Below, piece by piece: positions 1 through 6,219 of a stretch of DNA of 6,322 nucleotides. The position numbers and the translations under genes were made by a program. The stretch spans positions 1-6,322 of IMG/VR virus record IMGVR_UViG_3300045988_004451; one strand, given 5' to 3'. Each line of letters starts with the position of its first letter. Positions within the stretch are counted from its first letter, which is position 1. Source of the DNA: a virus. The notes under the pieces are model-generated. The model saw only the letters and a list, made by a program, of their open reading frames with translations. It was not told where the DNA came from and did not search any database.

Positions 1-77
1 ATGGCTTCTTACACTGGAATGTCCAATCTCCAGAACCACCCTCACCGTTCTGGATTTGATATTGGACGTAAAAATGC
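1..77. repeat. Terminal redundancy, left copy, identical to 6246..6322. It marks a circular genome with a 6245-nt unit.
   Basis: By direct comparison, the 77 nt atggcttcttacactggaatgtcc...ggacgtaaaaatgc at 1..77 are identical to 6246..6322. Confidence 0.97.
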
Positions 78-1868
78 TTTTACTGCTAAAGTTGGTGAGC
101 TTCTCCCTGTCTATTGGGATATTTCTATGCCAGGTGATAAGTATAAGTTTAATGTTGAGTATTTTACTCGTACCCAGCCCGTTGAAACTTCTGCTTATAC
201 CCGGTTGCGAGAGTATTTTGATTTCTATGCTGTTCCGTTGCGTCTTCTTTGGAAGTCTGCTCCTTCTGTGTTGACACAAATGCAGGACATCAATCAGATT
301 CAAGCTTTGTCTCTTACACAAAATTTGTCTCTGGGTACTTATCTCCCCTCTTTGCCTCTTAATGTTTGTATTTTCTGAGTACTGTTATTCAGCGTCTTAA
401 TGGAGGTTCTACCGATCCTAGTTCTTCATCTTCTTTGAAAAATCTTTTTGGTTTTTCTCGTTCAGATTTGTCTTTTAAGCTTTTGAATTATCTTGGTTAC
501 GGTAATTTTTTAAATTTTACTCCGTCTTCGGGCTCTCGTTGGTTTTCTACTTCTTTGAAAAATGATGATGATGCTTCTGACTATACTCAGCAATATATTC
601 AGAATAACTATGTGAATCTTTTCCCTCTTTTGGCTTATCAAAAGATTTATCAGGATTTTTTCCGTTGGTCTCAATGGGAGAATTCAAATCCTTCTTCTTA
701 TAATGTGGATTATTATTCCGGAATTTCGCCGTTGTTGTTATCCTCTATTCCTGAGGGTTCTAATGATTATTGGAAATCTGATACAATGTTTGACCTTAAA
801 TATTGTAACTGGAACAAGGATATGTTGATGGGTGTTCTTCCGAATTCTCAGTTTGGCGATGTTGCTGTGATTGATATTTCGAGTTCTGACGGTCCTATTC
901 CTAATTCTGTAGTATTAAAAGCTCCAAAAGGTAATGCTTCTTCTGAGGTTGTTACTACGGCTTCTTATAATGCTCCTCTTACTCCGTTATCTTTTGCTGC
1001 AAATTCTGCTTCTTCAACTAATGTTATTCCCAGTGGTTCTACTCTTCAAGTTAATCTTTCTAATTTGCAGAGTCAATTTACTGTACTTGCTCTTCGTCAA
1101 GCAGAAGCGCTCCAACGTTGGAAGGAAATCAGTCAGTCCGGTGATTCTGATTATCGTGAACAAATTCGTAAACATTTTGGCGTGAACTTGCCTCAAGCTC
1201 TCTCTAATATGTGCACCTATATCGGTGGTATTTCCCGTAATCTTGATATCAGTGAGGTTGTAAATAATAACCTTGCTTCTGAAAATAATGCTGCTGTTAT
1301 TGCTGGTAAAGGTGTCGGCACTGGTAATGGTTCATTTACTTACACAACTAACGAGCATTGTGTCGTTATGTGTATTTATCATGCCGTTCCTTTGCTTGAC
1401 TATACGATTACCGGACAAGACGGTCAGTTACTTGTAACTGATGCTGAGTCCCTCCCGATTCCGGAGTTTGATAATATTGGTATGGAAGTTCTTCCTATGA
1501 CACAGATTTTTAACTCTTCGCTTGCTACTGCTTTCAATTTGTTTAACGCTGGATATAATCCTCGCTATTTTAATTGGAAAACCAAGCTTGATGTTATCAA
1601 CGGTGCGTTCACTACTACTCTCAAGTCTTGGGTTTCTCCTGTTACTGAATCTTTGCTTTCTGGTTGGGCTCGCTTTGGTGGTTCTACTCCTGATTCAACG
1701 ACTAAGGTTGCTTTGAATTATAAGTTCTTCAAGGTTAGCCCCTCTGTTCTTGACCCTATTTTCGGTGTTAATGCTGATTCTACTTGGGACACTGACCAAC
1801 TTTTGATAAACTCTTATATTGGTTGCTATGTTGCCCGTAATTTGTCTCGTGACGGTGTACCTTACTAA
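1..1868 (+). CDS. VP1: Major capsid protein VP1 (phiX174 F-like jelly-roll). It is split across two frames, frame 1 at 1..378 and frame 3 at 363/366..1868, and needs a -1 shift or a 1-nt correction at about 363..375.
   Basis: The N-terminal 125 aa (SGFDIGRKNAFTAKVGELLPVYWDISMPGDKYKF..FTRTQPVETSAYTRLREYFDFYAVPLRLLW) is the conserved Microviridae VP1 N-terminal block as I recall it. The 500-aa continuation gives a combined length of about 620 aa, typical for Alpavirinae-like VP1. T-ending codon bias is strong in both segments. The frames overlap only between the frame-3 TAA at 360-362 and the frame-1 TGA at 376-378. Confidence 0.9.
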
Positions 1869-1882
1869 ACCTTGTTTTAATT

Positions 1883-2365
1883 ATGATTGGAAAATTTAAT
1901 AATTTGAATAGTTTGGAACAAGGTTCCGGACTTATTCCCAATGTTGGGCCGGATGCTTTTGCAGTTGCTTCCGAGTTTGATTCTACTGAGGAACTTCGTG
2001 TTGAAATCGATGAGTCTGATGAAACTCGTCCGGTTCGTTATACTTCTGATGTTCGTTTGATTCTTCATACCAAGGACTTGGCTTCCCGTGCTGGTCTTAC
2101 TATTGCTTCTAAGTTTGGTCAAAGTAAACAGACCGTTTCTCAGATTCAACAGCTTATGGATTTAATGTCTGATAATGACCTTTTATCTACGGTTCGTTCT
2201 CGGTATGTCCAGTCTCCCTCTGAAGTTATTGCTTGGTCAAAAGAGCTTATTGCTCGTGCTGAAGCTCTTAATCGTGAAGCTCAATTTTTGGTTGATGCTG
2301 AAACTGCTAAACAAGAAGCAGAAAAAGCGGCTGCTGCTTCCGCTGATACTGCTTCCTCTGAGTAA
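1883..2365 (+). CDS. Hypothetical 160-aa acidic protein, possibly an internal scaffolding protein (VP3-like) given its position and composition.
   Basis: ATG at 1883 and TAA at 2363-2365. It shares the T-ending codon bias of the structural genes. The C-terminal part is acidic and Ala-rich and looks helical (AEALNREAQFLVDAETAKQEAEKAAAASADTASSE). It lies between VP1 and VP2, and its stop overlaps the VP2 start (TAATG). I recognise no family motif. Confidence 0.7.
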   Translation: MIGKFNNLNSLEQGSGLIPNVGPDAFAVASEFDSTEELRVEIDESDETRPVRYTSDVRLILHTKDLASRAGLTIASKFGQSKQTVSQIQQLMDLMSDNDLLSTVRSRYVQSPSEVIAWSKELIARAEALNREAQFLVDAETAKQEAEKAAAASADTASSE

Positions 2366-3501
2366 TGGGTCTTCTTGGTTCAATCGCTGGTGGTCTCCTT
2401 GGTGTTGGTTCTTCTGCGATTCAAAATTCGCAGAATAGACAGAATGTCCGGGAGACCAATCAGATGAATTATAAGATAAATCAGATGAATAACCAGTTTA
2501 ACGAGCGTATGGCAATGCAGCAGCGCGATTTCCAGGAAAATATGTGGAATAAGGAGAATGAGTATAATACTGCCTCCGCGCAACGCCAACGCCTCGAAGA
2601 AGCTGGTTTAAACCCTTATCTGATGATGAATGGTGGTTCTGCTGGTACTGCTCAATCTGTTGGTTCTGGTGCTTCTGCTCAATCTGCAGGTTCTGCTGTT
2701 ATGCAACCTTTTCAGGCTGATTACTCAGGCATTGGTTCTTCTATTGGTAATATTTTTCAATATGAGCTTATGCAATCTGAAAAGTCTCAATTGCAAGGTG
2801 CCAGGCAGCTTGCCGATGCCAAGGCTATGGAAGTCCTTTCTAATATTGATTGGGGTAAACTTTCTGACGAAACTCGTAATTTTTTGAAATCTACCGGCTT
2901 GGCACGTGCCCAGCTTGGTTATGCCAAGGAGCAACAGGAAGTTGACAATATGGCAATGACTGGTCTTGTTATGCGTGCTCAGCGTTCTGGTATGCTTCTT
3001 GATAATGAGGCTAAAGGCATTATGAACCAGTATCTTGACCAACAACAGCAATTAGATTTAAATGTTAAGGCTGCGGACTACTATCAGCGTATGTCAGCTG
3101 GTTATCTATCTTATGCTGAAGCTAAAAAAGCTTTAGCTGAGGAAGCTTTGGCTGCTGCTCGTACTCGTGGTCAGAATATTTCTAATAAGGTTGCGGACCG
3201 TATTGCTGAATCTCAAATTGCTGCTAATATTGCAGCTAATGAGTCTGCCGCTGCTTATCATAATGAGGAGCTTAGATTGGGTCTTCCTCAAGATAATGCT
3301 CGTAGTAAGAATATTGAAGAATGGTATCGCGCTAGGAATGAGAAGAAAAGGTATCAGTATTTTGATGCTGATAAATGGGTTGATTATGGAACTAGTATTG
3401 GTAATACTATAGGTAATTTCTTACCTCGTAGAGTCTTTTCCAAATCTTTTTCTCGTTCTATTAATAGTAATACTAATTCTAATTATAATTATAGTCATTA
3501 G
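2365..3501 (+). CDS. VP2: VP2 minor capsid / DNA pilot protein (phiX174 H analogue).
   Basis: It has a Gly-rich hydrophobic N-terminus (MGLLGSIAGGLLGVGSSAI). It carries the block NMWNKENEYNTASAQRQRLEEAGLNPYLMM, which I recall as characteristic of gokusho/alpavirus VP2. The central part is long, Ala/Gln-rich and looks helical, and the protein is 378 aa. ATG at 2365 and TAG at 3499-3501. Confidence 0.85.
   Translation: MGLLGSIAGGLLGVGSSAIQNSQNRQNVRETNQMNYKINQMNNQFNERMAMQQRDFQENMWNKENEYNTASAQRQRLEEAGLNPYLMMNGGSAGTAQSVGSGASAQSAGSAVMQPFQADYSGIGSSIGNIFQYELMQSEKSQLQGARQLADAKAMEVLSNIDWGKLSDETRNFLKSTGLARAQLGYAKEQQEVDNMAMTGLVMRAQRSGMLLDNEAKGIMNQYLDQQQQLDLNVKAADYYQRMSAGYLSYAEAKKALAEEALAAARTRGQNISNKVADRIAESQIAANIAANESAAAYHNEELRLGLPQDNARSKNIEEWYRARNEKKRYQYFDADKWVDYGTSIGNTIGNFLPRRVFSKSFSRSINSNTNSNYNYSH
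2650..2703 (+). repeat. Imperfect in-frame 27-nt tandem duplication inside VP2 (AQSVGSGAS / AQSAGSAVM).
   Basis: gctcaatctgttggttctggtgcttct (2650..2676) compared with gctcaatctgcaggttctgctgttatg (2677..2703). The first 10 nt and the ggttctg core are identical, about 20/27 matches by hand alignment. The units start on codon boundaries. Confidence 0.6.
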
Positions 3502-3521
3502 TATTTTTTTATATTACATTT

Positions 3522-3552
3522 ACCCGGCCGTAGTGATACGTGTCGGGTTTTT
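3522..3552 (+). terminator. Rho-independent terminator downstream of VP2.
   Basis: ACCCGGCCGTA-GTGA-TACG(T)GTCGGGT forms an 11-bp stem with one G:U pair and one bulged T at 3541. The loop is a GNRA-type GUGA tetraloop (3533-3536). A TTTTT run follows at 3548-3552. The element begins 21 nt after the VP2 stop. Confidence 0.75.
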
Positions 3553-3573
3553 GTGTTTGGAGTAACTTCTGGC

Positions 3574-3643
3574 AACCGCGCGAAGCGTGGTTATACACCT
3601 ACTGAATTTCGGGACGTTAGGACTGAAATCAGAGCCGAAGGCT
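3574..3643 (+). promoter_or_regulatory. Three adjacent hairpins on the virion strand: 3574..3592 (containing GCGAAGC), 3602..3632, and 3633..3643 (AGCC-GAA-GGCT). Candidate single-strand initiation site or complementary-strand origin.
   Basis: Hand-folded pairings. AACCGCGC/GCGTGGTT gives 8 bp with one G:T around a GAA loop (3582-3584). CTGA(A)TTTCGG/CTGAAATCAG gives about 10 bp with one bulge. AGCC/GGCT gives 4 bp around GAA (3637-3639). No ORF is present on either strand, and the composition is more GC-rich than the coding regions. Confidence 0.5.
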
Positions 3644-3744
3644 ATAGTACTGCCTTCCTAAAAGCTTGATGTTTGCAACGCGTAAGCAGTCTCCCGGAAA
3701 TCTTTTCTCTTCCATCGCCGCTATACCCCTAAAAATATTATTTT

Positions 3745-3774
3745 GACGAAGTCTACATGAGTTTGCCCGAAGGG
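3745..3774 (+). promoter_or_regulatory. Two more C-GAA-G mini-hairpins: GAC-GAA-GTC (3745..3753) and CCC-GAA-GGG (3766..3774).
   Basis: Read directly from the sequence. Each has a 3-bp stem closing a GAA triloop with a C:G closing pair, the same architecture as at 3580-3586 and 3635-3641. Confidence 0.45.
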
Positions 3775-3798
3775 AAAGCGATTTACCTCATCGCTTTC
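3774..3798 (+). promoter_or_regulatory. Perfect 9-bp stem with a 7-nt loop: GAAAGCGAT-ttacctc-ATCGCTTTC. Function unknown; it could be an origin or Rep-recognition element or an RNA structure.
   Basis: GAAAGCGAT (3774-3782) is the exact reverse complement of ATCGCTTTC (3790-3798). No T-run follows, so it is not a canonical terminator. Confidence 0.5.
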
Positions 3799-3886
3799 AG
3801 TACCTTCTTGTCTTATATACGCAAACTCACAGACCCGCCTACAACTCCTTCAGCCTTCATTTTTTGTGTTAAAAGGTGTTTATATA

Positions 3887-3919
3887 TTTGTTCTTTTCAA
3901 ATTCTTATTTATACTTTTG
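3887..3919 (+). promoter_or_regulatory. Candidate Bacteroidota-type promoter, with a -33 TTTG and a -7 TAnnTTTG.
   Basis: TTTG at 3887-3890, a 21-nt spacer, then TACTTTTG at 3912-3919 fits the reported Bacteroides consensus TTTG-N19-21-TAnnTTTG. It lies about 45 nt upstream of the first ORF after the noncoding region (ATG 3964). Caveat: the region is T-rich, so chance matches are likely. A second TAnnTTTG (TATATTTG, 3883-3890) has a poorly spaced -33. Confidence 0.3.
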
Positions 3920-3963
3920 CCATGTTTTTAAAAAATCAATGTCTAATTAAAATTTTAAATGTT

Positions 3964-4140
3964 ATGGAAAAGTTTTATTTGTGTTCTATTCAATCTAAAA
4001 AAAATCCTGGTCAGAATGAAACTGTTCTTGTTCCGGTTGATGAAGTTTCTGTTTTTGTCTCTTCGGTCCTTAACTCGGATTGCTTACTCATTTTTTCTGA
4101 TTGTTCAACTTTTAATTCGAAATCCAACAATGAAAAGTGA
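3964..4140 (+). CDS. Hypothetical 58-aa protein.
   Basis: ATG at 3964 and TGA at 4138-4140. T-ending codon bias matches the other genes (ttt tat ttg tgt tct att ... gtt ctt gtt ccg gtt gat). The overlapping hydrophobic +1-frame ORF (3959..) behaves like the usual T-in-middle shadow frame, which supports this frame as the real one. No motif recognised. Confidence 0.5.
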   Translation: MEKFYLCSIQSKKNPGQNETVLVPVDEVSVFVSSVLNSDCLLIFSDCSTFNSKSNNEK

Positions 4141-4219
4141 AACTAAATCTAAAATTTGGTCTGCAATTATTGCAGCTGCTGTTAGTCTTCTTACGTCTAT
4201 TGCTCAAATATTTTCGTAA
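4130..4219 (+). CDS. 29-aa single-pass membrane peptide (MKSETKSKIWSAIIAAAVSLLTSIAQIFS). Candidate holin-like or lysis accessory peptide.
   Basis: ATG at 4130 and TAA at 4217-4219. The N-terminus is charged and followed by one hydrophobic segment of about 20 residues. T-ending codons are used. It overlaps the end of the upstream ORF by 11 nt and ends 3 nt before the peptidase ATG. Confidence 0.5.
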   Translation: MKSETKSKIWSAIIAAAVSLLTSIAQIFS

Positions 4220-4222
4220 GTC

Positions 4223-4531
4223 ATGAATCCCACATTAATGAAATTCATTGCATGGCTTCTGTTTCGGAATGTTCATTTCACCGTTACTTCCGCTCTTCGT
4301 ACTAAGGAACAAAACGATGCCTGTAAAGGGTCTCCTAATTCGCAGCATTTGACTGGTGATGCTATTGACTTGAAGCCTGTCGGTCTTTCTGTTGATGATT
4401 TTATTTCGCTGGTTAAGAGTTCTCCTTTTTCCTTTGACCAGTTAATAAAATATCGCACGTTTGTTCATGTTTCTTTTGCGCGTGTTCGTAGACCTCGCCA
4501 AATGGAATTAGATTTTACTAATAGAAAATGA
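4223..4531 (+). CDS. Zinc D-Ala-D-Ala carboxypeptidase-like / Peptidase_M15 (LAS superfamily) cell-wall hydrolase, a putative endolysin.
   Basis: SQHLTGDAID (nt 4340-4369) fits the M15_3/VanY-type S-x-H-x-x-G-x-A-x-D zinc-binding motif. FVHVS (His codon 4466-4468) supplies the third ligand, as in the family's vHvd block. An upstream VTSALRT..N block lies where the family has SgyR...N. The protein is 102 aa with no signal peptide. Its TGA overlaps the VP4 ATG (ATGA at 4528-4531). Confidence 0.8.
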   Translation: MNPTLMKFIAWLLFRNVHFTVTSALRTKEQNDACKGSPNSQHLTGDAIDLKPVGLSVDDFISLVKSSPFSFDQLIKYRTFVHVSFARVRRPRQMELDFTNRK

Positions 4532-6219
4532 TTACCAAGGAATTACAGAATAAGTTAGTAACTCGTTGCCAGAACCCTCGTACGGTTGTCAACAAATATA
4601 CGCATGAGCCTGTTGTTGTTCCCTGTGGCTCTTGCCCTTCTTGTATTCTTCGTCGTTCCGGTATTCAGACTAACCTGCTTACTTCTTATTCTACTCAGTT
4701 TCGTTATGTATACTTTGTTACTCTTACTTATGCTCCTTGCTTTCTTCCTACTTTGGAAGTTTCGGTTGTTGAAGCTTGTACGGATGATATTGCGGATGTT
4801 TCCGTTATTCCCGATATCAATGACTTGGATGTTAGTGACCCTAATACTTATTTGTTTGGTTTTCGCAGCGTTCCTCGTTCCGCTTCTGTTAAGTTAAAGA
4901 ATTCTACTGTCGAGCGTACATTTAGAGACCCTGATGTAGTATTTTCCTATCCTATGACTCCCAAGGATTTATTATCTATTCTTAGCAAAGTTAAGCATAA
5001 TGTTCCGAATAGAATTCCTTATGTTTGTAATCGTGACCTTGACTTGTTTTTAAAACGTTTAAGAAGTTACTACCCCGATGAAAAATTACGTTACTACGCT
5101 GTATCAGAGTATGGACCCACGAGTTACCGCCCGCATTGGCATTTGTTATTGTTTTCCAATTCCGAGCGATTCTCGCAAACTGTTCTTGAAAATGTATCTA
5201 AAGCTTGGTCTTACGGACGTTGTGATGCGTCACTGTCGCGAGGATTCGCAGCACCGTATGTTGCGTCGTATGTTAATAGCTTTGTCTCTTTACCCGACTT
5301 TTATGTTCAAATGCCAAAAGTGGTGCGACCTAAATCCTTCCATTCCATTGGATTTACGGAATCAAATCTCTTTCCTCGAAAGGTACGAATTGCCGAAATT
5401 GATGAAGTTGTCGATAAGTGCCTTAATGGAGTCCGCGTTGAGCGCGATGGCTATTTTCGGACAGTTAAACCTTCATGGTCGTATCTCCTTCGATTATTCC
5501 CCAGATTTTCGGACTCTATTCGTCAATCTCCATCGAACGTTTACCAGCTACTTTCTGCTGCGTTCACAGCGCCCGAACGAGTCATTCGTAGCGGATGCGC
5601 TGATTTGACTTGTGACCCTTTTAATGAATCTTCCAAGCAAAGCATATTATCTTTTTGTAAACAATATTTAAATTATGTAGACAATTATGGAAAAAGAAAT
5701 GACAAACGAAATGTTTTCTCACCTAAAGCGAATTTACCGCATAGTGATATTCTCATTTTGTCTGAATGTCGTTTGTATGATGGTGCTGATTTGGAACCTG
5801 TTCATCGCACAACCCGATTATACCGCTTTTTTCTCGGAATTGCGAAATTTATACGAACATATTCATCAAACGGAGAATTCTTATGGGCCGGTAGCTCCTT
5901 TCCAGGATATGCCGGCAGCCGAGAGAGAGCTTTACGAGTCCTCTCGGAAAAGATAATCGGATTCTGGCGTCGTTACGATTATAATCGTCTTGTTGATTTT
6001 TATCAGACTTTGGAAGACTCTAATGATAAGGATTTGCTTGACTTTGAGCTTCGTAACTATTCTTTTCGATACGATAAGTCTGTCCTTGATAATGAAGTGC
6101 CTTATAAATCTCTCCCTCTTGTTCGTCGTTTGGCTGCTGCGTCATTGATGAAATGTCGAGATAAGGTCAAACACAAGAGGGTTAACGATTCATTTGGTAT
6201 TTTTTCTTATCAGGATTGA
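4528..6219 (+). CDS. VP4: VP4 replication initiation protein, an HUH rolling-circle endonuclease (phiX174 A-like).
   Basis: RCR motif 1 is FVTLTY (4714-4731). Motif 2 (HUH) is PHWHLLLF, with HWH at 5134-5142. Motif 3 has two tyrosines, YVASYVNS (Tyr codons 5257-5259 and 5269-5271), comparable to phiX174 A YVAKYVNK. There is an N-terminal Cys cluster, C-x18-C-x2-C-x2-C. The 563-aa length is typical of Alpavirinae-like VP4. Confidence 0.92.
   Translation: MITKELQNKLVTRCQNPRTVVNKYTHEPVVVPCGSCPSCILRRSGIQTNLLTSYSTQFRYVYFVTLTYAPCFLPTLEVSVVEACTDDIADVSVIPDINDLDVSDPNTYLFGFRSVPRSASVKLKNSTVERTFRDPDVVFSYPMTPKDLLSILSKVKHNVPNRIPYVCNRDLDLFLKRLRSYYPDEKLRYYAVSEYGPTSYRPHWHLLLFSNSERFSQTVLENVSKAWSYGRCDASLSRGFAAPYVASYVNSFVSLPDFYVQMPKVVRPKSFHSIGFTESNLFPRKVRIAEIDEVVDKCLNGVRVERDGYFRTVKPSWSYLLRLFPRFSDSIRQSPSNVYQLLSAAFTAPERVIRSGCADLTCDPFNESSKQSILSFCKQYLNYVDNYGKRNDKRNVFSPKANLPHSDILILSECRLYDGADLEPVHRTTRLYRFFLGIAKFIRTYSSNGEFLWAGSSFPGYAGSRERALRVLSEKIIGFWRRYDYNRLVDFYQTLEDSNDKDLLDFELRNYSFRYDKSVLDNEVPYKSLPLVRRLAAASLMKCRDKVKHKRVNDSFGIFSYQD

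Follow-up and report, generated by a model that had tools for sequence, protein, structure and literature searches.

The peptide and peptidase genes upstream of rep

The stretch of DNA analysed here, referred to as the window, is the IMG/VR virus record IMGVR_UViG_3300045988_004451 (6322 nt), a complete microvirus genome in which every gene lies on the + strand. Directly upstream of the replication gene rep, the window contains a gene for a 29-aa membrane peptide and, after 3 bases (GTC), the gene of a short zinc peptidase, and these two genes are the subject of this report. A first-pass annotation, made from the sequence alone, had proposed them as a minimal holin-endolysin cassette, and the layout is as it described: the zinc-peptidase motifs are present, the 29-aa open reading frame (ORF) ends 3 nt upstream of the peptidase gene, and the peptidase stop overlaps the rep start by 4 nt (ATGA at 4528-4531). 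The peptide and peptidase genes are real, are under purifying selection, and lie next to each other in two clades and, in reverse order, in a third, unrelated clade.

The peptidase contains the motifs S40-Q-H42-L-T-G45-D-A47-I-D49 and F80-V-H82-V-S84, and the zinc-ligand motif in 4223..4531 is far beyond chance. The protein matched Pfam PF08291 (Peptidase_M15_3) with 44.8 bits (gathering threshold 23.2; E=1.6e-11) and PHROG 894 'endolysin' with E=4.4e-16, and a profile of diverse microviral homologues matched PDB 1LBU, the zinc D-Ala-D-Ala carboxypeptidase of Streptomyces albus, with E=3.2e-11. These profile searches, which the first-pass annotation had suggested, uphold its assignment of the protein to the M15/LAS-type zinc peptidases. 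The assignment is correct and concerns an already known type, 'peptidase' being the product name in GenBank relatives of the window. The family is abundant, with 1638 proteins at E<=1e-3 in a homologue search; the best 120 of these are all at least 77% identical to the query, lie mostly on ~6.2 kb contigs and all contain PF08291. The window peptidase covers only positions 43-108 of the 108 positions of the PF08291 profile, so the domain is incomplete. It is missing the N-terminal 35-50 residues that are present in its tailed-phage homologues and in that of phiHBP1, a cultured phage which its authors call the first isolated Microviridae phage infecting Bacteroidota. This truncation had not been mentioned in the first-pass annotation.

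H42, D49 and H82 are invariant across four homologue alignments and make up an H-x6-D...H triad of putative zinc ligands; S23, R26, N31, S40 and D72-Q73 are also conserved. When the protein was aligned with annotated tailed-phage endolysins, S23, R26, N31, G36, S40, H42, G45, A47, D49, H82 and R90 were invariant and two subtypes appeared, one with 'FDQLI ... H-x-S', which includes the window protein, the phiHBP1 protein and Xanthomonas and Burkholderia phage endolysins, and one with 'H-x-D' and no FDQ. Because the former subtype ends in H-x-S and not in H-x-D, the acidic residue may be supplied by D72. The alignment to 1LBU spans the R...S-x-H-x-x-G-x-A-x-D block, H42 and D49 included, and ends before the C-terminal histidine. 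In a separate, sub-significant profile alignment with Sonic hedgehog (E about 0.07), H82 lies opposite the second histidine of H-I-H, which we take to be the zinc ligand H183. The AlphaFold2 model of the peptidase has a predicted local distance difference test score (pLDDT) of 83.5 and a predicted template modelling score (pTM) of 0.76, is weaker near residues 30-45, and gave 14 matches at E<=1e-3, down to 2e-10, to predicted viral M15/M15A structures, including 'Peptidase [Microvirus mar54]'. The N-terminal helix (residues 3-14) aligns to the core helix of the longer homologues, with no hydrophobic run of more than 7 residues. It is thus the family core helix and not a signal sequence, in line with the earlier statement that the enzyme has none.

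The small ORF is embedded in an 86-aa open frame (3959..4219 in the ORF list). ATG 4130 is present in 68 of 68 close relatives, 24 of which have no in-frame ATG upstream of it. The peptide begins with eight residues of net charge +2, which are followed by a hydrophobic helix of ~20 residues and almost no C-terminal tail; the best 19-residue hydrophobic segment has a mean hydropathy of 1.88, with just 'FS' after it. In clade 1, the clade of the window, the polar residues K8, S11, S19, T22, S23 and Q26 fall within a 120-degree helix arc, and clade 2 has a stripe in the same register (K8, G12, S15, G19, N23, G26), such that polar or small residues occupy one narrow face. A stripe of this kind would be expected of an oligomerising or pore-lining helix. 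In five relatives (L006, L017, L041, L069 and L079) the peptide opens with a pair of methionines (MMKSETK or MMKNETK), similar to the dual-start motif known from some holins; the double start is not conserved and is absent from the window.

Conservation and linkage across microvirus clades

The peptide gene is intact in 68 of 69 clade-1 genomes and in all 22 clade-2 genomes, that is, in 90/91. The clade-2 peptide, MKSNNIWKIIIGAVSAALGYILNAIGL, has 27-29 residues and a stop codon that overlaps the ATG of its peptidase, which is 47-55% identical to that of the window clade. The ratio of nonsynonymous to synonymous differences per site (pN/pS, from Nei-Gojobori counts) of the peptide gene in its own frame is 0.118 in clade 1 and 0.141 in clade 2, as against 1.2-2.6 in the other two frames, and variable sites at codon positions 1/2/3 number 11/5/23 and 8/2/21, respectively. 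Within one set of 58 genomes, pN/pS is 0.109 for the peptide, 0.293 for the peptidase and 0.258 for ORF-A, the gene upstream of the peptide gene. Because this coding-type substitution pattern is conserved in 90 of 91 related genomes, the small ORF is beyond chance; it is a genuine, strongly constrained and previously overlooked gene. The survey of relatives proposed in the first-pass annotation has thus come out in favour of an ORF that is conserved beside the peptidase. In the same genomes we also observed that the synonymous term (pS) of the peptide gene is 0.24, about half of that of the peptidase (0.48) and ORF-A (0.43), and that predicted RNA structure does not explain this.

The small ORF was unannotated in 10 of 10 annotated GenBank relatives and absent from the called-gene tables of related metagenome contigs, in each case among those inspected. 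In Dulem viruses 238, 226 and 243 (L022 3985..4359, L024 3935..4309 and L025 3999..4373), the annotated peptidase coding sequence starts 21 codons early and crosses the small ORF in the wrong frame (e.g. MENHHWCCLCCPRLCLKFSWAMNV...), which hides the peptide gene.

The genes upstream of rep are tightly packed, as had been noted before. The stop codon of ORF-A (TGA, 4138-4140) starts 8 nt into the peptide gene, so that the two genes overlap by 11 nt (ATGAAAAGTGA), and this overlap is followed by the 3-nt gap and the 4-nt overlap described above; such packing fits coupled translation. In the window, the peptide and peptidase ORFs (4130 and 4223) are in one frame and are split by TAA-GTC. Neither the overlapping ORF-A nor this shared frame had been mentioned in the first-pass annotation. 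The frame relation is not conserved in relatives: the clade-1 spacers between the two genes are 3, 9, 12, 13, 15, 16, 21, 32 and 56 nt, and in clade 2 the genes overlap out of frame.

A group of pig-gut microviruses (L033, L220-L224) encodes a peptidase that is ~37% identical to that of the window and, directly downstream of it, a conserved peptide of 29-30 aa that is built in the same way (MTKEQLNKISNALCALISAVCAALSYFFS or MLTKEKLTRISNGICALISAICAAISYFLN). This peptide gene overlaps the 3' end of the peptidase gene in another frame and lies just before rep, so that the gene order is reversed relative to clades 1 and 2. Two members of the group, MG945328 and MG945336, have capsid proteins that are only 21% identical, yet they have a ~700-nt block around the peptidase in common, reported with no mention of the peptide (Kirchberger et al. 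2022, PMC9239249). We found that this block (~750 nt, 76% identity) runs into or to the edge of the peptide gene, and that the whole peptide is present in both genomes. In ungapped comparisons, the window peptide resembles the pig-clade and clade-2 peptides modestly better than compartment-preserving shuffles do (P about 0.009 and 0.005).

Other small ORFs occur near microvirus peptidases. The phiHBP1 group has a conserved 29-aa cationic ORF, MKLNFSVLKKVILLIHDIVTFLLQRKKNN, ~90 nt downstream of the peptidase (L028 6330..6419, wrapping to 11..100; L207 5298..5387; L208 931..1020); its product is no classical transmembrane helix, but it could be a further small peptide with a part in lysis. The peptidase of Dulem virus 264 is full-length (159 aa), and downstream of its gene, just before rep, lies a 26-aa ORF, MGPKTKEIIRFIITVITSVAAALGIM (L029 4862..4942), with a build like that of the window peptide; viral_contigs yielded no relatives of this virus, and those in GenBank are near-identical and thus uninformative on the conservation of the ORF. 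In the clade-2 contig L199 the peptide gene is on the reverse strand at about 3355..3560, about 60 nt before rep, and has an altered C-terminus (…ILSSFGG). A 47-aa membrane protein with the motif IWxIIIGA, found on ~55 kb phage contigs, was set aside: its neighbours at one locus (L105) are non-lysis genes, and the match probably arose from the pattern used in the search.

Genome, neighbouring genes and host

The closest GenBank records to the window are Dulem viruses 257 and 236 from lemur faeces and bajarodmic viruses 410 and 1134 from rodent faeces, which are 82-88% identical in nucleotide sequence and have an identical gene order. The features of the window are collected in Table 1, in which Rep is listed as context for the module and lies outside the lysis function.

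Table 1 Features of the window, in order of position
Feature	Position	Strand	Basis or remark
Major capsid protein	1..378 plus 366..1868	+	Split by frameshift
Internal scaffolding protein, 160-aa ORF	1883..2365	+	Name from annotation in relatives
Pilot protein	2365..3501	+	
Non-coding stretch of ~460 nt, then three small genes	between pilot gene and Rep		
Possible promoter, two overlapping matches to TTTG-N15-23-TAnnTTTG	3863..3919	+	Bacteroides-type pattern
ORF-A, 57-aa soluble protein	3967..4140	+	'hypothetical protein' in GenBank relatives
29-aa single-pass membrane peptide, MKSETKSKIWSAIIAAAVSLLTSIAQIFS	ATG 4130..TAA 4219	+	Conservation, pN/pS, hydropathy
Minimal 102-aa Peptidase_M15_3 / M15A LAS zinc peptidase, candidate endolysin	4223..4531	+	Pfam, PHROG, profile, model
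Rep/VP4 replication initiator	4528..6219	+	Pfam REP_ORF2-G2P, PHROG 942

The protein encoded by ORF-A was found only on microvirus-sized contigs or in prophages of this microvirus lineage. A Pfam scan found no domain in it. Its AlphaFold2 model (pLDDT 84) has a beta-beta-alpha-beta fold and no significant structural match in the PDB, and neither hhalign nor BLASTP detected homology to the ORFs at the same position in clade 2 and phiHBP1.

A protein identical to ORF-A is encoded on long metagenome scaffolds that carry a whole integrated microvirus, inserted with a Usp gene on one side and, on the other, a TPR gene that lies downstream of gyrA. The genes of this prophage are, in order, those of a 60-aa product, ORF-A, the peptide (not called as a gene), peptidase, Rep, capsid, scaffold and pilot. 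The flanking GyrA is 89-91% identical to Bacteroides GyrA, and the prophage ends carry the dif-like repeats ATATTAAACAT(A/T)(A/C)TGCTGATATT (L216, about 9700-9790 and 16130-16160). Integration of the dif/XerCD type is the mode of Alpavirinae-like phages, and the repeats are as would be expected from it by analogy. A dif-flanked integration has been described in a microvirus (PMC11980548). Because a related prophage sits in a Bacteroides chromosome, the host of the window phage is a Gram-negative Bacteroides and the phage is temperate. A search for integrated copies in reference genomes gave distant peptidase matches only. The attachment region of the window (about 3839-3962), between a conserved non-coding block and ORF-A, differs in sequence from that of the prophage, and the 60-aa ORF of the prophage is absent from the window.

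The conserved non-coding block (3519..3839) is 88-91% identical to the Bacteroides prophage copies, compared with 79-88% for coding DNA. As single-stranded DNA it folds far better than shuffled sequences (z=-3.28; 0 of 100 shuffles equal), and an Rfam search with it gave no match. The block could act in replication or packaging, or it could be an RNA. Downstream of it, 50-100 nt upstream of ORF-A, lie two matches to what is reportedly the Bacteroides promoter consensus, said to go back to Bayley and colleagues in 2000. They are the sole two in the window on either strand, against a chance expectation of 0.58, and at least two matches occurred in 23 of 200 shuffles; they mark a possible, weak candidate promoter of the unit of ORF-A, peptide, peptidase and rep. 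The capsid frameshift (~358-378) lies within a hypervariable stretch, and the relatives have a single 615-616-aa ORF at this place; the split capsid gene is a sequencing or assembly error or a sign of a defective genome.

A lysis-module reading, its rivals and known systems

The best reading of the locus, which we hold with about even confidence, is a compact, translationally coupled, holin-endolysin-like lysis module of a temperate Bacteroides microvirus. For this module we infer enzyme activity, membrane insertion and topology, oligomerisation, hole formation and a dependence of the enzyme on the peptide, as follows. The stripped-down 102-aa M15A zinc peptidase would be made in the cytoplasm without an export signal and would cut peptide bonds of peptidoglycan. 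The 29-aa peptide would insert in the inner membrane with its N-terminus inside and would oligomerise via the helix face that bears the small and polar residues; once a critical level is reached, it would permeabilise the membrane in a holin-like manner, whereupon the peptidase would reach the murein and the cell would burst. The reading is supported because the peptide stays intact in 90/91 genomes across clades whose peptidases are as little as ~47-55% identical, because its pN/pS is below those of the peptidase and ORF-A and its polar stripe keeps its register in both clades, because the genes are closely packed, because homologues of the same peptidase subtype sit in tailed-phage holin-endolysin(-spanin) cassettes, and because the independent pig-gut group keeps a peptide beside its peptidase. 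The microvirus Ebor, with its hydrolase and its small predicted membrane protein, is a precedent. As in holins, the peptide has at least one predicted transmembrane helix, a small size and a gene adjoining that of a candidate endolysin, and, as in endolysins, the enzyme is a predicted cytoplasmic muralytic protein without an export signal whose gene lies beside a membrane-protein gene.

Several observations weigh against this reading. The peptide matches no holin family in Pfam, PHROG and NCBIfam scans, and the charged C-terminal tail typical of holins is absent, all charge of the peptide being N-terminal. The first-pass proposal of a holin-endolysin cassette is upheld in part, for a real, conserved membrane-peptide gene adjoining an M15 peptidase gene, the peptide being a candidate holin and the enzyme a candidate endolysin. 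About 40% of the Pfam domain, its N-terminal part, is absent from the peptidase, and a Foldseek search of the peptidase model against solved structures gave no significant match, with Ply500, LysB4 and VanY at E about 1. We know of no 29-aa single helix that releases a folded enzyme of 11.7 kDa. Clades 1 and 2 share ancestry, so that their co-occurrence of the two genes is a single event and the pig-gut clade alone is independent. The contig L199 (5845 nt) is without a peptidase gene and keeps the peptide directly before rep. Conversely, L010, the sole relative with a disrupted peptide gene, has an intact peptidase and a peptide gene broken by TAA at codon 4 and by an 8-nt insertion or duplication, in the region upstream of 3326. 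In phiHBP1, the full-length 134-aa homologue is encoded after rep and no comparable transmembrane ORF lies beside it.

In the main rival reading, the peptide would be an autonomous lysis or killing factor, either an amurin that inhibits wall synthesis at a membrane step or a depolarising toxin of the TisB type, with the peptidase merely speeding or completing wall breakdown. We consider this unlikely. The single-gene lysis proteins of single-stranded RNA (ssRNA) phages are small, have about 35-37 aa and cross the membrane once, and phiX174 E acts by means of its N-terminal helix; the peptide of the window is likewise small, is more constrained than the enzyme, and in L199 persists after loss of the peptidase. 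On the other hand, L199 is one contig only, and possibly a defective one. The peptide is free of proline and of any other feature like those of phiX174 E, its gene is not overprinted, and it stays beside the peptidase gene even in the clade with the opposite order. The Sgl concept behind this comparison is the topic of a review (bioRxiv 10.1101/2022.01.20.477139).

It is quite unlikely, in our view, that the peptidase serves in entry, remodels murein as a component of the virion or has another accessory function, the peptide having a separate membrane role such as superinfection exclusion or the anchoring of replication or assembly. The first-pass annotation had raised a virion-associated entry enzyme itself, from the position of the genes in a rep-proximal unit; M15A domains also occur within very large virion or tail proteins of tailed phages (701-1191-aa matches), and a trace of the hydrolase of the microvirus Ebor was detected in virions (PMC11980548, Table 1). 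Yet a T=1 microvirus capsid leaves little room for extra cargo, the nearest homologues of this subtype outside the microviruses are encoded in lysis cassettes and annotated as endolysins, and the adjacency of peptide and peptidase is held in two gene orders. Highly improbable is an account in which the small ORF has no separate product and is a DNA or RNA element, or part of a readthrough or frameshift fusion that would yield a membrane-anchored enzyme. The low pS of the peptide gene, about half of its neighbours' 0.43-0.48, and the shared frame of 4130 and 4223 would fit such an account; however, the substitution pattern is coding-specific, with a pN/pS of 0.11-0.14 in frame 0 only. Nucleic-acid structure as the cause of the conservation was rejected on this frame-specific pattern, on the unremarkable RNA fold of the peptide-gene region (z=+0.19) and on an Rfam search that gave no match. 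A readthrough fusion was rejected as well, since spacer lengths and frames vary among the relatives, with variable spacers in clade 1 and an out-of-frame overlap in clade 2, and no constant fusion frame results.

A broader form of the lysis-module reading is possible but doubtful. The 27-30-aa peptides would then be a new minimal class of holins or permeabilisers, below any described holin in size, and would travel with the M15 peptidase as a ~0.5-0.75 kb cassette that recombines between distant microvirus families, bringing a tailed-phage-like mode of lysis instead of that of phiX174. Microviruses other than phiX174 are among the most abundant phages of the mammalian gut. The enzyme half of the module is already in the literature, so that the conserved membrane peptide is the new part, and its gene would correct microvirus annotation. 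If the peptide is what permeabilises the membrane, it would be a holin-like protein of unusually small size, and the pair a tractable two-gene Bacteroides lysis system that could serve as a genetic tool or antibacterial lead; if the peptide kills alone, it would be a new single-gene lysis candidate acting in Bacteroidota.

Among known systems, 1LBU (MEROPS M15A) is the best solved relative by profile search and has an extra N-terminal domain. Classical LAS enzymes have H-x-H where the window peptidase has F-V-H. Phages with very small genomes, such as phiX174 (protein E) and the ssRNA phages, lyse their hosts with a short single-pass membrane peptide in the absence of a muralytic enzyme, and the function of E, which is overprinted in gene D, depends on Pro21. 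Unlike E, the peptide of the window is without proline, occupies its own slot with an 11-nt overlap only and is paired with a peptidase, and so is not of the E type.

Parallels exist in other microviruses. In 11 human-associated Microviridae (10 gut, 1 lung), Roux et al. 2012 (PMC3394797) described M15_3 peptidase genes, which they interpreted as endolysin genes gained by horizontal transfer; five of the 11 had an ORF of unknown function next to them. Peptidases are also among the lysis-associated accessory genes that Kirchberger et al. 2022 (PMC9239249) listed for several microvirus families. As in the window, these are PF08291 genes in gut microviruses of the Alpavirinae/Gokushovirinae type. 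The differences are that no small membrane peptide was described ('holin' and 'transmembrane' occur 0 times in PMC9239249) and that the window enzyme is a truncated 102-aa form. In addition, most marine Occultatumvirinae carry an M15 peptidase, and in 2025 Gp7 of Ebor was verified as a peptidoglycan hydrolase by zymogram, with Gp1 of the same phage a 45-aa predicted membrane protein (PMC11980548). Together with the GenBank product names, these three reports (PMC3394797, PMC9239249, PMC11980548) make the view taken in the first-pass annotation, that M15-like ORFs of microviruses are sporadic and uncharacterised, out of date. Ebor is similar to the window in being a temperate single-stranded DNA microvirus with a wall-degrading enzyme and a small predicted membrane protein. 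It differs in that it belongs to the Tainavirinae and has a Rhodobacter host, and Gp1 is not stated to adjoin Gp7.

Parallels also exist in tailed phages. Xanthomonas phage Suba has a 39-aa annotated holin whose gene overlaps the endolysin start, and Burkholderia phage vB_PR2a has a holin-endolysin-spanin cassette. Both resemble the window in having a homologous endolysin of the FDQLI...H-x-S subtype (36-41% identity over the core) with a small membrane-protein gene immediately upstream, which in these phages overlaps the endolysin start. In contrast to the window, their holins have a charged C-terminal tail, and their enzymes keep the N-terminal segment (~140-150 aa in total) that the window enzyme is without. 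A spanin gene follows the endolysin gene in vB_PR2a, and none was seen in the window.

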